Below are positions 2,670 to 50,340 of a DNA stretch of 64,000 bases, piece after piece. Source of the DNA: Escherichia coli. Its GTDB lineage: Bacteria; Pseudomonadota; Gammaproteobacteria; Enterobacterales; Enterobacteriaceae. The stretch lies in the NCBI RefSeq assembly GCF_002854065.1, contig NZ_CP024147.1. The stretch is one strand, 5' to 3'. Every line of letters begins with the position of its first letter. The stretch's first letter is position 1. Both the position numbers and the translations under genes were made by a program. The notes under the pieces were generated by a model that was not told the origin of the DNA, did no database searches, and saw only the letters and a list, made by a program, of their open reading frames with translations.

Positions 2670-4130
2670 ATGACTACTATTGTTGACAGCAATCTGCCGG
2701 TTGCCCGCCCGTCATGGGATCATTCTCGTCTGGAATCACGCATTGTGCATCTCGGTTGCGGGGCGTTTCACCGTGCGCACCAGGCGCTGTACACCCATCA
2801 TCTGCTGGAAAGCACCGACAGCGACTGGGGTATCTGCGAAGTTAACCTGATGCCAGGCAACGACCGCGTGCTGATCGAAAACCTGAAAAAACAGCAACTG
2901 CTGTACACCGTGGCGGAAAAAGGCGCGGAAAGCACCGAGCTGAAAATTATCGGTTCGATGAAAGAAGCGCTGCACCCGGAAATCGACGGCTGCGAAGGTA
3001 TTCTCAACGCGATGGCGCGTCCGCAAACGGCGATTGTCTCTCTGACGGTCACGGAAAAAGGCTACTGCGCTGATGCGGCAAGCGGTCAACTGGATCTCAA
3101 TAACCCGCTGATCAAGCACGATCTGGAAAACCCGACTGCGCCGAAGTCCGCGATTGGTTACATCGTCGAAGCCTTGCGTCTGCGTCGTGAAAAAGGGCTG
3201 AAAGCATTTACGGTGATGTCCTGCGATAACGTGCGTGAAAACGGTCATGTGGCGAAGGTCGCGGTACTGGGGCTGGCTCAGGCGCGTGACCCGCAGCTAG
3301 CGGCATGGATTGAAGAGAACGTCACCTTCCCGTGCACCATGGTTGACCGCATCGTTCCGGCGGCGACGCCAGAAACCTTACAGGAAATTGCTGACCAGCT
3401 GGGCGTTTACGACCCGTGCGCCATTGCCTGCGAACCGTTCCGTCAGTGGGTGATTGAAGATAATTTCGTTAATGGTCGCCCGGACTGGGATAAAGTGGGC
3501 GCACAGTTCGTTGCAGACGTTGTGCCGTTCGAAATGATGAAGCTGCGTATGCTGAACGGTAGCCACTCTTTCCTGGCGTACCTCGGTTACCTCGGCGGCT
3601 ATGAAACTATTGCCGACACCATGACTAACCCGGATTATCGCAAAGCGGCCTTTGCCCTGATGATGCAGGAACAAGCGCCAACGCTGTCGATGCCGGAAGG
3701 TACGGACCTGAACGCCTATGCGACGCTGCTGATCGAGCGTTTCAGCAACCCGTCTCTGCGTCACCGTACCTGGCAGATTGCGATGGACGGCAGCCAGAAG
3801 TTACCGCAGCGTCTGCTGGACCCGGTGCGTCTGCACCTGCAAAACGGCGGCAGCTGGCGTCACCTGGCGCTGGGCGTGGCTGGCTGGATGCGTTACACCC
3901 AGGGCGTGGATGAGCAGGGTAATGCCATTGACGTGGTCGACCCGATGCTGGCCGAGTTCCAGAAGATTAACGCGCAGTATCAGGGCGCAGACCGCGTGAA
4001 AGCGCTGCTAGGCCTGAGCGGTATTTTTGCCGATGATCTGCCGCAGAATGCCGACTTTGTTGGCGCGGTGACGGCGGCATATCAGCAGCTGTGCGAACGC
4101 GGTGCGCGCGAGTGTGTGGCTGCGCTGTAA
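2670..4130 (+). CDS. uxuB: D-mannonate oxidoreductase (fructuronate reductase)
   Basis: Track ORF, 486 aa, MTTIVDSNLPVARPSWDHSRL...; ATG verified at 2670. Confidence 0.95.
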   Translation: MTTIVDSNLPVARPSWDHSRLESRIVHLGCGAFHRAHQALYTHHLLESTDSDWGICEVNLMPGNDRVLIENLKKQQLLYTVAEKGAESTELKIIGSMKEALHPEIDGCEGILNAMARPQTAIVSLTVTEKGYCADAASGQLDLNNPLIKHDLENPTAPKSAIGYIVEALRLRREKGLKAFTVMSCDNVRENGHVAKVAVLGLAQARDPQLAAWIEENVTFPCTMVDRIVPAATPETLQEIADQLGVYDPCAIACEPFRQWVIEDNFVNGRPDWDKVGAQFVADVVPFEMMKLRMLNGSHSFLAYLGYLGGYETIADTMTNPDYRKAAFALMMQEQAPTLSMPEGTDLNAYATLLIERFSNPSLRHRTWQIAMDGSQKLPQRLLDPVRLHLQNGGSWRHLALGVAGWMRYTQGVDEQGNAIDVVDPMLAEFQKINAQYQGADRVKALLGLSGIFADDLPQNADFVGAVTAAYQQLCERGARECVAAL

Positions 4131-4265
4131 CTAACTGATTACCCTACAGACTTACTGGTCAATCAAACTGATATTTGGTTGACCAGTTTTCGTTTTTTTG
4201 CCCACCTGTACGTGCCAACTTCCAGTGCTAATGGTATAGTTTGAGATTAACAGGGGCCGTAAAAT

Positions 4266-4308
4266 TGCCCGTTGTAGGCCGGATAAGGCGTTCACGCCGC
4301 ATCCGGCA
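4266..4308. repeat. REP (repetitive extragenic palindrome) element
   Basis: gcccgttgtaggccggataaggcgttcacgccgcatccggcaaaa between uxuB and uxuR; canonical REP core GCCGGATAAGGCG...CGCATCCGGC. Confidence 0.6.
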
Positions 4309-4344
4309 AAAATTTGATTAACCGCACCTAACGGACACAACACC

Positions 4345-5118
4345 ATGAAATCTGCCACCTCTGCGCAAAGACCTTACCAGGAAGTCGGGGCGATGATCCG
4401 CGATCTGATCATAAAGACGCCGTACAATCCTGGCGAACGGCTGCCGCCGGAGCGTGAAATTGCAGAAATGCTTGATGTCACGCGGACGGTGGTACGTGAA
4501 GCGCTGATCATGCTGGAGATCAAAGGGCTGGTGGAAGTGCGCCGGGGTGCCGGTATCTATGTTCTTGATAGCTCAGGCAGCCACAACACAGACAGTTCGG
4601 ATGCCAACGTCTGTAATGATGCGGGTCCTTTTGAGCTGTTACAGGCGCGTCAGTTACTGGAAAGTAACATCGCGGAATTTGCCGCTTTGCAGGCTACCCG
4701 CGAAGATATCGTCAAAATGCGTCAGGCATTGCAACTGGAAGAGCGTGAACTGGCTTCCAGCGCGCCGGGTAGCAGCGAAAGCGGTGATATGCAGTTCCAT
4801 CTCGCCATTGCCGAAGCAACGCATAACAGCATGCTGGTGGAGTTATTCCGTCAGTCCTGGCAGTGGCGGGAAAACAATCCAATGTGGATCCAGTTGCACA
4901 GCCATCTGGATGACAGCCTGTATCGCAAAGAGTGGTTGGGCGATCACAAACAGATCCTCGCCGCGTTAATCAAAAAAGATGCCCGAGCGGCGAAGCTGGC
5001 AATGTGGCAGCATCTGGAAAACGTTAAGCAACGTCTGCTGGAATTCTCGAACGTTGACGATATTTATTTTGACGGCTATCTGTTTGATTCATGGCCGCTG
5101 GATAAAGTCGACGTCTGA
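4345..5118 (+). CDS. uxuR: GntR-family repressor of the uxu regulon
   Basis: Track ORF, 257 aa, N-terminal GntR-type HTH (ERLPPEREIAEMLDVTRTVVREAL). Confidence 0.95.
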   Translation: MKSATSAQRPYQEVGAMIRDLIIKTPYNPGERLPPEREIAEMLDVTRTVVREALIMLEIKGLVEVRRGAGIYVLDSSGSHNTDSSDANVCNDAGPFELLQARQLLESNIAEFAALQATREDIVKMRQALQLEERELASSAPGSSESGDMQFHLAIAEATHNSMLVELFRQSWQWRENNPMWIQLHSHLDDSLYRKEWLGDHKQILAALIKKDARAAKLAMWQHLENVKQRLLEFSNVDDIYFDGYLFDSWPLDKVDV

Positions 5119-5130
5119 CTTATTATAATA

Positions 5131-5162
5131 AGCGCAAGGGTAAACGTTCCTTGCGCTTTCTT
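5131..5162. terminator. Hairpin plus T-run between convergent uxuR and yjiC (likely bidirectional terminator)
   Basis: gcgcaagg-gtaaacgtt-ccttgcgc stem-loop followed by tttctt. Confidence 0.5.
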
Positions 5163-5258
5163 AAATTAAGAAGTCGCAATGAGTATTGCTTTGTAAATTG
5201 CAGGGTATTGTTTAAATATCTGTATAACCTGAATATTAGTACTCATTCTTCTCAGTTG

Positions 5259-5978
5259 CTATTTACCAATATAATTCCATTCACCATTTTTTAATTCAAA
5301 CAGTTCTGGAAGAGATGACGGTTGCAGAGTCATGCGTTTGAGTGGCGCATCTTCATCACCGGGGATAACTTTATATCCCATTTTTACATGGATCTCCGCG
5401 GTACCAGGATAGGCTTCTATACCAATGATTGGGTCATTTCCCATCTCAATATTAGCATTAAGTAATGCGGCAAGGGCGAATCCGGAAGAATTTGCTACCC
5501 CTGAGACAGTTATTATCTGATCAATATAGATATCAATTCTTGGCTGCTCATTGGTCCATCTTTTTGCCTGAGAAACTGGAAGGGTTGAAATATATCCTAT
5601 CGTGGTTCCGGCGTAACCTGGAACATTGCAACCAGGGCCTAATGTTATTTCATGAACTGTATAGTCCTCAACAGGATCGAAAGGGCTCTTCATAAATAAA
5701 TTTAGCCGTAAACCTTCTGCTAATTCTGTAGCAGCATGCGCCTTTTTACATATGCCACCATATATTTCGTCTAAAGCTGAGGTGATTTTCAAGTTTCGAT
5801 AGAGCATACGTCCTGTTGTTGTAATACCATTGAATTCTCTGCATGTTTCTGTCACATAATTAAATGGCCAGGACTCTTTACTAATATCAAGTTTTCTAAT
5901 TTCGACAACGCTTTTTCCATCGTAATTATGGTTATTGCCACGAGCAAGAGGCGGAAGATAGATATTTTCCGTATCCAT
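5259..5978 (-). CDS. yjiC: Uncharacterised protein YjiC
   Basis: Track ORF, 239 aa, ATG verified (MDTENIYLPP...). An in-frame stop lies 25 codons upstream, so no long extension is possible in this strain. Confidence 0.7.
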   Translation of the reverse strand: MDTENIYLPPLARGNNHNYDGKSVVEIRKLDISKESWPFNYVTETCREFNGITTTGRMLYRNLKITSALDEIYGGICKKAHAATELAEGLRLNLFMKSPFDPVEDYTVHEITLGPGCNVPGYAGTTIGYISTLPVSQAKRWTNEQPRIDIYIDQIITVSGVANSSGFALAALLNANIEMGNDPIIGIEAYPGTAEIHVKMGYKVIPGDEDAPLKRMTLQPSSLPELFELKNGEWNYIGK

Positions 5979-46917: not shown

Positions 46918-47781
46918 TCACAAATACAGCGCCGGAAATATCAACCGGCCCACCCCGCGCACCTTTAATGCATCAGCCAACGGCTCAACGTCTTCCGGCG
47001 TGGCGCTCGCCCAGCTTTGCGCCTCGCCATACACGCCGTGGGCATGAAACGCGTTCAGGCGTACCGGAACATCGCCAAGTCCCTTGATAAACGCCGCCAG
47101 TTCTTCGATGTGTTGCAAATAATCCACCTGGCCAGGGATTACCAGCAAACGCAGTTCCGCCAGCTTGCCGCGCTCTGCCAGCAAACAGATGCTGCGCTTA
47201 ATCTGCTGATTATCGCGTCCGGTTAATTGTTGATGACATTCGCTACCCCATGCTTTGAGATCGAGCATTGCGCCGTCACACACCGGGAGTAATTTTTCCC
47301 AGCCGGTTTCGCTCAACATGCCGTTACTGTCCACCAGACAGGTGAGATGGCGCAGTTGCGGATCGTTTTTGATAGCAGTAAACAGCGCCACTACAAACGG
47401 CAGTTGGGTCGTGGCTTCGCCGCCGCTTACCGTTATCCCTTCAATAAACAGCACCGCTTTGCGGACATGGCTAAGCACTTCGTCCACGCTCATGGATTGC
47501 GCCATCGGCGTGGCATGTTGCGGACACCTCTTCAGGCAGGTATCACACTGCTCGCAGACCGCAGCGTTCCACACCACTTTGCCGTCAACAATCTGCAACG
47601 CCTGATGCGGACACTGTGGCACGCACTCTCCGCAATGATTACAGCGCCCCATCGTCCACGGATTGTGACAGTTTTTGCAGCGCAGATTGCAGCCCTGCAA
47701 AAACAGAGCCAGACGACTGCCTGGCCCGTCAACGCAGGAGAAGGGGATAATCTTACTGACTAAAGCGCATCTGCTGTTCAT
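46918..47781 (-). CDS. yjjW: Radical-SAM glycyl-radical-enzyme activating protein YjjW
   Basis: Track ORF, 287 aa, CxxxCxxC motif ([13 protein letters not shown]) plus additional Cys clusters. Confidence 0.85.
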
Positions 47782-49303
47782 GGCTTATCACGCGCGGCTG
47801 GCGTTCCAGAATACGAGTGTTGCGTGCGGCTTCTTCGCCCAGCCAGGTGGTGTTGGTGCGTGAACCTTCGGCGCGATATTTTTCTAAATCCGACAAACGC
47901 ACCATATAACCGGTAACGCGAACCAGATCGTTACCGCTGACATTGGCGGTAAATTCACGCATTCCGGCTTTAAAGGCACCGAGGCAAAGCTGTACCAGCG
48001 CCTGCGGATTACGTTTGATGGTTTCGTCGAGCGTCAGAATGTCGCTGATGCCGGAATAATAATAAGCATGATGCGGGGCGACAGTTTGCAGATGGGTGAT
48101 CGGATCTGGCTCATCGCCATAGGGTAAACGCGCGCCCGGCGTGGTGCCGATATCGGAACTGATCCCCGACTGTGCGTGTAACATGGCGCGTTTTTGCCAT
48201 CCATATTTCACGGGGGTATTGGCGACAAACTCCGCCAGTTGCGCGCTGATGCGATAACCCACTTCATTTGCGGCGGCTTCTTTACCGTAACGTGCGGCAA
48301 TCCCTTCTTTCTCACACAGCAAGTTAACCGCTTCCGCCAGCCCATACATGCCAAACATTGGCACAAAACGTTCAGGGTTAATCAGCCCTTCTTTCACCAG
48401 GAAGCTATTCTCAAAGAAGTGTGATTGTTGATAGAGGAATTCACACCGCGCATCGATGATGGCGATCTGCTGCTGGCAATAGTGCGGTAGAGTGCGCGTA
48501 AAGAAGTCATCCAGCGATTCGCTGCGCTCGGCAATGGCTTTCAGGTTAAGGCGTACCAGCGTGCTGCCACCACCCGCCAGCGGCAGTGAGTTGTAACAGC
48601 TCACAATCCCGTAGCCCCCTTTTGTGAAAATTTTATCATGCACCGGACCGTTGGCGATGTGCGGTTTGCTACATTCACAGATGTTCTTCGCCACTTCCAG
48701 CAGCAGGTCATCAGGGGTGATTTCAGGATCGTAGATAAAGGTCAGGTTCGGTGAAACCTGCTTCAACTCTGCGTCTGCACGTAAGATCGCGCGGGTAATG
48801 GGCGAATCAGACGGGCCGATATTGGCGTGCATAAAGGCGTCTGGCAGGGTTCTGTCGAGGTAACGCCAGAAACGTTTTATTCGAACATCGATCTCGTCTT
48901 GTGTTAGAATTCTAACATACGGTTGCAACAACGCATCCAGTTGCCCCAGGTAGACCGGCATCGATGTGACCGACGGTACGTGGTGGTAAAGAATGGTCAG
49001 CAGAGAGAGTGCGTCATCAAGATCTTTCGCGCCTTCCAGCTCCAGCCATTCGGAACCGTTCGCCAGAAAACGGGCGTAATCGGGTAAGACATAGCGCGGT
49101 TTGTACGGCGCATGACCTTCAAACATATCGCAGATTACACCCTCATCCAGCGCGCGGCGGGCTTCGGCAGGAAGCTGCGGATAAGGCAGATTGTTTTCTG
49201 CTTCCAGAGCCAGAAAATGGCGCTTCTGCTCCGGGCTAAGCACTGGGCTGGTGACAATTTGCTGGCAACGTTGTTGCAGTGCATTTTCATGAGAAGTGGG
49301 CAT
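47753..49303 (-). CDS. yjjI: YjjI-family glycine-radical-enzyme-like protein
   Basis: Track ORF, 516 aa; overlaps the yjjW start by 29 nt. Confidence 0.85.
48623..48638. promoter_or_regulatory. DeoR operator-like site (candidate deoOE), inside the yjjI coding sequence
   Basis: TGTGAAAATTTTATCA, 12 of 16 matches to the DeoR palindrome, 280 bp upstream of the next operator. Confidence 0.45.
48903..48918. promoter_or_regulatory. DeoR operator (deoP1-type), perfect palindrome TGTTAGAATTCTAACA, inside the yjjI coding sequence
   Basis: Exact 16-bp palindrome; 598 bp upstream of the second operator. Confidence 0.65.
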
Positions 49304-49500
49304 CTTCTTTTCCTTTTATGCCGAAGGTGATGCGCCATTGTAAGAAGTTTCGTGATGTTCACTTTGATCCTGATGCGTTTGCCACCACTGACGCATTCAT
49401 TTGAAAGTGAATTATTTGAACCAGATCGCATTACAGTGATGCAAACTTGTAAGTAGATTTCCTTAATTGTGATGTATATCGAAGTGTGTTGCGGAGTAGA

Positions 49501-49516
49501 TGTTAGAATACTAACA
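49501..49516. promoter_or_regulatory. DeoR operator (deoP2-type) TGTTAGAATACTAACA with adjacent CytR/CRP region
   Basis: Palindrome about 45 nt upstream of the deoC ATG, preceded by ttgtgatgtatatcgaagtgtgtt. Confidence 0.65.
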
Positions 49517-49560
49517 AACTCGCAAGGTGAATTTTATTGGCAACAAGCCAGGAGAATGAA

Positions 49561-50340
49561 ATGACTGATCTGAAAGCAAGCAGCCTGCGTGCACTGAAAT
49601 TGATGGACCTGACCACCCTGAATGACGACGACACCGACGAGAAAGTAATTGCTCTGTGTCATCAGGCCAAAACTCCGGTCGGCAATACCGCCGCTATCTG
49701 TATCTATCCTCGCTTTATCCCGATTGCTCGCAAAACGCTGAAAGAGCAGGGCACCCCGGAAATCCGAATCGCTACGGTAACCAACTTCCCACACGGTAAC
49801 GATGACATCGAAATCGCGCTGGCAGAAACCCGTGCGGCAATCGCCTACGGTGCTGATGAAGTTGACGTTGTGTTCCCGTACCGCGCGCTGATGGCGGGTA
49901 ACGAGCAGGTTGGTTTTGACCTGGTGAAAGCCTGTAAAGAGGCTTGCGCGGCAGCGAATGTACTGCTGAAAGTGATCATCGAAACCGGCGAACTGAAAGA
50001 CGAAGCGCTGATCCGTAAAGCGTCTGAAATCTCCATCAAAGCGGGTGCGGACTTCATCAAAACCTCTACCGGTAAAGTGGCTGTGAACGCGACGCCGGAA
50101 AGCGCGCGCATCATGATGGAAGTGATCCGTGATATGGGCGTAGAAAAAACCGTTGGTTTCAAACCAGCGGGCGGCGTGCGTACTGCGGAAGATGCGCAGA
50201 AATATCTCGCCATCGCAGATGAACTGTTCGGTGCTGACTGGGCAGATGCGCGTCACTACCGCTTTGGTGCTTCCAGCCTGCTGGCAAGCCTGTTGAAAGC
50301 GCTGGGCCACGGTGACGGTAAGAGCGCCAGCAGCTACTAA
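49561..50340 (+). CDS. deoC: Deoxyribose-phosphate aldolase
   Basis: Track ORF 49537..50340 trimmed to ATG with AGGAGAA Shine-Dalgarno ([28 protein letters not shown]...), 259 aa. Confidence 0.95.

Follow-up and report, generated by a model that had tools for sequence, protein, structure and literature searches.

The deo operon of Escherichia coli is preceded by a divergently read neighbour, yjjI, and the DNA around their junction contains three palindromes of the DeoR operator type, two of which had been noticed inside the coding region of yjjI. This arrangement raises the question of whether these palindromes are the genuine operators of deoCABD and, if so, what their location within a protein-coding gene does to that gene.

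The yjjI–deoC junction carries the DeoR operators OE, O1 and O2

We analysed a 64-kb stretch of DNA, which we call the window and whose numbering is used throughout. The divergent yjjI–deoC junction gives the region its identity; 1401 bases around the operators matched 5423 of 5426 complete E. coli genomes at an identity of at least 95%, and the window DNA is E. coli chromosome. The genes concerned are the following.

46918–47781, minus strand: yjjW, glycine radical enzyme activase (ORF and annotation)
47753–49303, minus strand: yjjI, YjjI-family glycine radical enzyme of 516 aa (ORF, annotation and Pfam PF11230)
49561–50340, plus strand: deoC, first gene of deoCABD and the regulated target (annotation)

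The annotation places deoA, deoB and deoD after deoC. The coding sequence of yjjI (1551 nt), which hosts O1, OE and deoP1, is separated from deoC by an intergenic gap of 257 bp, and at its 3′ end it is overlapped by the start of yjjW over 29 nt (47753–47781). A predicted protein of 574 aa on a 2.9-kb contig (P0004) combines a YjjI domain (PF11230) with a DeoC domain (PF01791); across the aligned 91% of the E. coli YjjI query, its identity is 100%. This fusion is probably an artefact of assembly or gene calling at the divergent junction.

All three 16-mers that the preliminary description had identified as DeoR operator palindromes were read in the window, at the places given below.

48623–48638, unstranded: OE, distal DeoR operator, TGTGAAAATTTTATCA, in yjjI codons 222–227 (HDKIFT)
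48902–48917, unstranded: O1, TGTTAGAATTCTAACA, in yjjI codons 129–134 (YVRILT)
49501–49516, unstranded: O2, TGTTAGAATACTAACA, intergenic between yjjI and deoC

The starts of OE and O2 are those described earlier, while O1 begins at 48902 and not at 48903. This slip of one base accounts for the spacings of 280 and 598 bp reported at that time; the actual start-to-start distances are 279 bp for OE–O1 and 599 bp for O1–O2, with 878 bp for OE–O2. O2 is followed by 44 bases up to the ATG of deoC. O1 and OE occupy nucleotides 387–402 and 666–681 of the 1551-nt coding sequence, and hence both of them reside in the 5′ half of yjjI, as had been claimed.

O1 is a perfect palindrome (16/16 positions self-complementary) and matches the 16-bp palindromic operator type, TGTTAGAA.TTCTAACA, at all 16 positions. 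O2 differs from O1 by one base (14/16 self-complementary; 15/16 matching), and OE differs from it by four (12/16 in both respects). The 16-bp operator consensus and the figure of 279 bp attributed to the primary papers are in full agreement with the sequence. When the whole 64-kb window was scanned with up to three mismatches allowed, O1 and O2 alone were recovered, against 0.18 sites expected by shuffling; for up to two mismatches, 2 sites were seen against 0.005 expected (200 Markov-1 simulations of the 64-kb window). At the level of four mismatches 1.8 sites are expected per 64 kb, and besides OE the window has two, at 5287 and 38439, so OE is not recognisable from its sequence alone. The identification of OE relies on where it lies and how well it is conserved, and not on its sequence score.

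We compared the window with K-12 MG1655 (NC_000913.3), presumably the strain in which the deo operators were defined, where reportedly the operators and promoters were studied by Dandanell and Hammer in 1985, Valentin-Hansen et al. in 1986, Dandanell et al. in 1987 and Amouyal et al. in 1989. The deoCABD region of K-12 is the same locus, with identical 16-mers at 4616385, 4616664 and 4617263, the same spacing of 279, 599 and 878 bp and identical flanking genes. The differences are at the strain level only: 13 substitutions in 1401 bp, none of them within the operators and one in a CRP site of deoP2, at 49476.

The deo operon is driven by deoP1 and deoP2, which are both repressed by DeoR, lie 599 bp apart and are locked together by a DNA loop (PMC3334521). 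DeoR binds to O1 and O2, about 600 bp apart, and to OE, about 300 bp further upstream; electron microscopy revealed DeoR loops between all the sites, and O1–O2 looping was measured in vivo (PMC8053113). The natural looping range reaches 900 bp (PMC4217526), deoxyribose-5-phosphate is the inducer of DeoR (PMC5326754), and one deoCABD promoter sits ‘in an upstream gene, yjjI’ (PMC6389913). The O1–O2 spacing in the window equals the literature distance between deoP1 and deoP2, and the 279 bp between OE and O1 agree with a third site placed ‘about 300 bp’ away (PMC3334521, PMC8053113). Comparison with the published placement was the check proposed beforehand, and the two distances as well as the promoter within yjjI agree with it (PMC3334521, PMC8053113, PMC6389913); these distances and the identity with K-12 bear out the OE–O1–O2 geometry of deo looping that had been proposed. 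We consider the three 16-mers to be, almost certainly, the canonical DeoR operators OE, O1 and O2 of E. coli deoCABD. The operator triad and its overlap with yjjI are already known, and the new part of this work is the comparison across species.

Synonymous constraint in yjjI peaks at O1 and OE

A scan with the YjjI protein, in which one genome was taken per species, gave 80 loci, which include Escherichia, Citrobacter, Salmonella, Enterobacter, Lelliottia, Kosakonia, Kluyvera, Hafnia, Edwardsiella, Proteus and others. deoC lies divergently adjacent to yjjI in 74 of the 80; two loci were too short to show the arrangement, and the four Proteus loci have no deoC within 3 kb. We observed an O1-type site at CDS position +386 in all 76 non-Proteus loci (no mismatch in 54, one in 18 and two in 4). 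In the same 76 of 76 loci OE was found exactly 279 bp deeper in the gene than O1, and in 64 of them it was identical to that of E. coli.

Constraint on the codons was measured by threading the nucleotides of 77 distinct sequences onto the E. coli codons and calculating the entropy of each column. Over the whole of yjjI the entropies at the three codon positions were 0.31, 0.21 and 1.15, as expected for a gene that truly encodes a protein. The mean third-position entropy dropped to 0.046 in the O1 codons (129–134) and to 0.11 in the OE codons (222–227), compared with a median of 1.19 for six-codon windows, and thus O1 and OE ranked 1 and 2 of 511 such windows for the lowest third-position variation. 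Among 1533 windows of 16 nt, OE ranked 1 and O1 ranked 8 for the lowest variation. In the per-base conservation map the conserved blocks stop within about 1 nt of the two 16-mers. As all the windows share the same tree, the kinship of the species does not explain why these particular ones are frozen.

The third most constrained window, codons 508–513, owes its frozen synonymous sites to the overlap with yjjW, in line with an overlap that holds the start of yjjW and its ribosome-binding region. Within O1 there is one AGA and one CTA codon, each of which occurs just twice in yjjI; both are rare codons in E. coli.

O2 behaves differently from the two intragenic operators. A related site was present at the equivalent place with at most four mismatches in 72 of 74 species, and with five in the other two, both Edwardsiella. 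Across species this intergenic operator is less uniform than O1 and OE; most of the variation falls in the half-site closer to deoC, where the drifted forms include ...CTCACA, ...ATAACA and ...GTCACA. The O1–O2 distance ranges from 567 to 626 bp, whereas the OE–O1 distance is constant at 279 bp; the variable distance fits a loop that is long enough to be insensitive to helical phase.

The constraint follows the operators

We then considered the lineages in which the operators are missing. The O1 codons of the four Proteus species encode YVGELT, YVGNLT or YVGSLT with free synonymous choice, and their OE codons encode QDAVFG. The operators are absent there, and yjjI–yjjW adjoins smp-serB-radA-nadR (contig L089, 276–7380; also L078–L081), which corresponds to the E. 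coli neighbourhood minus the deo segment. Either deo was lost in Proteus or it was inserted in the other lineages. In the distant YjjI proteins of Providencia, Moellerella and other lineages the motifs YV[RKG]ILT and D[KN]IFT were absent, and deoC was not adjacent to yjjI in those of these loci that were inspected. Overall, the sites together with the frozen codons are absent from the four Proteus species, a Providencia locus and one further lineage where yjjI is apart from deoC. The synonymous constraint is confined to the sites, and it is missing in Proteus, in Providencia and on contigs L085 and L087. In most of the relatives without the sites deoC is not adjacent either, and there the codons and even the residues vary.

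Two sets of more distant loci separate the operators from the protein and from the gene order. On three contigs whose YjjI is 66–67% identical to that of E. coli, O1 is present at +386, OE is present at +665 and identical to the E. coli one, and an O2-like site lies in the intergenic region; deoC adjoins yjjI on two of them, and the third ends before the position of deoC. The metagenomic contig L087 encodes a YjjI that is 70% identical and has deoCAB divergently adjacent across a gap of 404 bp (2817–5551). No DeoR-like site with up to four mismatches was found there in yjjI or in the intergenic region, and the corresponding codons are unconstrained. Therefore, adjacency to deoC alone does not enforce the operators, and from these two sets of loci we concluded that the constraint follows the presence of the operators and neither the YjjI protein nor the adjacency. 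In the L087 lineage deo must be under a different control, or DeoR may be missing.

On two contigs from more distant lineages (L082, 6410–7687; L087, 6427–7704) a gene for a NupC-type nucleoside transporter was observed between yjjW and a gene for a TatD-type hydrolase. With these neighbours, yjjIW is flanked on both sides by genes of nucleoside or nucleic-acid catabolism, which may hint at the function of YjjI.

Could the conservation of O1 and OE stem from demands of yjjI itself, for example essential residues, the structure of its mRNA or translational pausing at rare codons, with OE possibly a chance near-match? OE does carry four mismatches, a level that chance would reach 1.8 times in 64 kb, and rare codons can have roles of their own. 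However, it is the third codon positions that are frozen, in blocks whose edges coincide with those of the 16-mers to about 1 nt, and orthologues without the sites vary both in residue (YVGELT, YVGNLT and YVGSLT at O1; QDAVFG and QQQAFD at OE) and in synonymous choice. In addition, it is very unlikely by chance that two windows specified beforehand should come out at ranks 1 and 2 of 511, and DNA loops that involve OE have been seen by electron microscopy (PMC8053113). We regard constraints of yjjI itself as a very improbable explanation. The possibility that all three palindromes arose by chance and serve no regulator is practically negligible: the weak score of OE is all that speaks for it, whereas two sites have at most one mismatch when 0.005 would be expected even at two, and the sites are identical in K-12 and conserved across at least 76 species. 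For OE taken singly the sequence was insufficient to reject a chance match, and that possibility was rejected on conservation and position. The three 16-mers are thus best read as DeoR operators, whose binding function would account for the frozen codons.

Promoter and CRP elements around the operators

A −10-like hexamer, TAGAAT, is present inside O1 at 48905–48910, for deoP1, and again inside O2 at 49504–49509, for deoP2. A sigma-70 consensus promoter scan of 48500–49650 left both promoters uncalled and gave a single hit, a number that shuffled sequences also reach. The scan calls neither promoter because their −35 regions are poor and the scan is too strict. Since it left both uncalled, we infer their −10 hexamers. 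The other elements that we considered are listed here.

48863–48884, plus strand: frozen block upstream of O1, ACGCCAGAAACGTTTTATTCGA, with frozen synonymous sites; yjjI codons about 140–147
49415–49430, unstranded: CRP-like site, TTTGAACCAGATCGCA, 53 bp upstream of the proximal CRP site
49468–49483, unstranded: proximal CRP site of deoP2, TGTGATGTATATCGAA, the same as the ETEC CRP ChIP-seq motif

Codons 141–146 (window 48866–48883), 20–40 bp upstream of O1, have the fourth-lowest synonymous variation in yjjI. The block at 48863–48884 probably supplies deoP1 with its −35 region and upstream part, to judge by where it lies with respect to the −10-like hexamer. The site at 49415–49430 is a candidate for the distal CRP site of deoP2, a promoter with tandem CRP sites 53 bp apart. 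The proximal CRP site and this putative distal one are both located within the 257-bp yjjI–deoC gap.

In ETEC, a CRP ChIP-seq peak between yjjI and deoC carries a motif identical to 49468–49483 (PMC4287617). The single substitution that separates this site from its K-12 counterpart is at 49476, where the window has A (TGTGATGTATATCGAA) and K-12 has G (TGTGATGTGTATCGAA); ETEC H10407 is reported to have the A form (PMC4287617).

A further CRP-like 16-mer, TGTGACCGACGGTACG, was noticed inside yjjI at 48965–48980, some 50 bp beyond O1 when read in the direction of deo. A CRP ChIP-seq peak within yjjI in ETEC H10407 has a motif equal to it (PMC4287617). We considered this site as another embedded element and rejected it, as its third codon positions vary across species and show no extra constraint.

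How the operators would shape yjjI

The above results are consistent with the following scheme. O1 and O2 would each overlap the TAGAAT −10-like hexamer of one of the tandem promoters deoP1 and deoP2, and OE would be auxiliary. According to the literature, multimeric DeoR would join two or three of the sites into single or double loops of 279, 599 or 878 bp; looping would lift the local occupancy of DeoR and keep both promoters locked until deoxyribose-5-phosphate frees the repressor. As the yjjI–deoC gap measures only 257 bp, deoP1, O1 and OE fall inside yjjI. Within this gene, selection for DeoR binding would outweigh synonymous drift and codon preference, and would dictate some of the residues of YjjI. 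The sequence comparisons show that the operators constrain both the codons and the residues of yjjI and shape the sequence of the gene.

The preliminary description had gone further, holding that deo regulation is physically entangled with the transcription and translation of yjjI. At the sequence level this is upheld by the physical overlap and by the constrained codons and residues. Translation is touched through codon choice only; a DNA-bound repressor has no direct action on translation.

Does DeoR also act on yjjI?

Regulation of yjjI by the embedded sites would place yjjIW in the DeoR regulon. A DeoR roadblock at O1 and OE could stop the RNA polymerase that transcribes yjjI, or an O1–O2 or OE–O2 loop could enclose and silence the yjjI promoter, or, after release of DeoR, transcription from deoP1 could pass in the antisense direction over the initial ∼400 nt of yjjI and over its promoter. 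The geometry allows such regulation, as yjjI starts at 49303, which places this start and therefore the promoter of the gene between O1 and O2. The position of an FNR ChIP peak was transferred to the window with the coordinate shift between genome versions. yjjI is directly activated by FNR, and the peak falls at about 49396, inside the loop (PMC3688515). Furthermore, the divergent yjjI–deoC arrangement is kept with all three sites from Escherichia to relatives whose YjjI is only 66% identical. On the other side, the role of the sites at the deo promoters fully accounts for their conservation, and our literature search found no report of a DeoR effect on yjjI, nor of intragenic or antisense regulation through DeoR sites. 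Moreover, Proteus, Providencia and other lineages have a yjjI–yjjW pair that is accompanied by neither deoC nor the operators, and L087 retains the adjacency without the operators. On balance, regulation of yjjI by these sites seems rather unlikely.

A more specific form of this proposal is that the layout couples the FNR-activated glycyl-radical pair yjjIW to DeoR and to the availability of deoxynucleosides, by way of the loop, a roadblock or antisense transcription from deoP1. We hold such a coupling to be decidedly unlikely. If it were true, it would hint at a role of YjjI in anaerobic nucleoside or deoxyribose metabolism; in several lineages a nucleoside transporter and a TatD-type nuclease are also encoded in the neighbourhood. 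Control of yjjI by DeoR or deoP1 would provide the first functional lead for this uncharacterised glycyl-radical enzyme.

Comparison with other intragenic regulatory sites

Auxiliary operators within coding sequences are found elsewhere, as lac O2 is inside lacZ and gal OI is inside galE. The deo arrangement resembles these in that an auxiliary operator in a coding sequence loops with a promoter-proximal operator, and the coding sequence must satisfy the operator. In lac and gal, however, the internal operator resides in the first gene of the regulated operon itself, whereas in deo two operators and the whole promoter deoP1 lie in a divergent neighbour of unrelated function, and the loops are longer. 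Conserved intragenic sigma-54 sites are reportedly another example of overlapping codes that constrain synonymous positions, and there, too, regulatory DNA in a gene shows itself as a local loss of synonymous variation. Unlike those sites, the deo operators have a bound factor, a function and target promoters that were established by experiment decades ago.

The deo operators serve as a classic model for repression over long distances through looping, and therefore their rediscovery adds nothing to the looping mechanism. The added value is modest and comparative: of the whole yjjI gene, the two stretches with the tightest synonymous constraint across at least 76 species of enterics are O1 and OE. 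The operators impose rare codons (AGA and CTA) and particular residues on YjjI, and this constraint is gone in the lineages without operators. The locus is thus a clean natural case in which a regulatory code is superimposed on a protein-coding one, and it carries a warning that deleting or recoding yjjI will change deo regulation.
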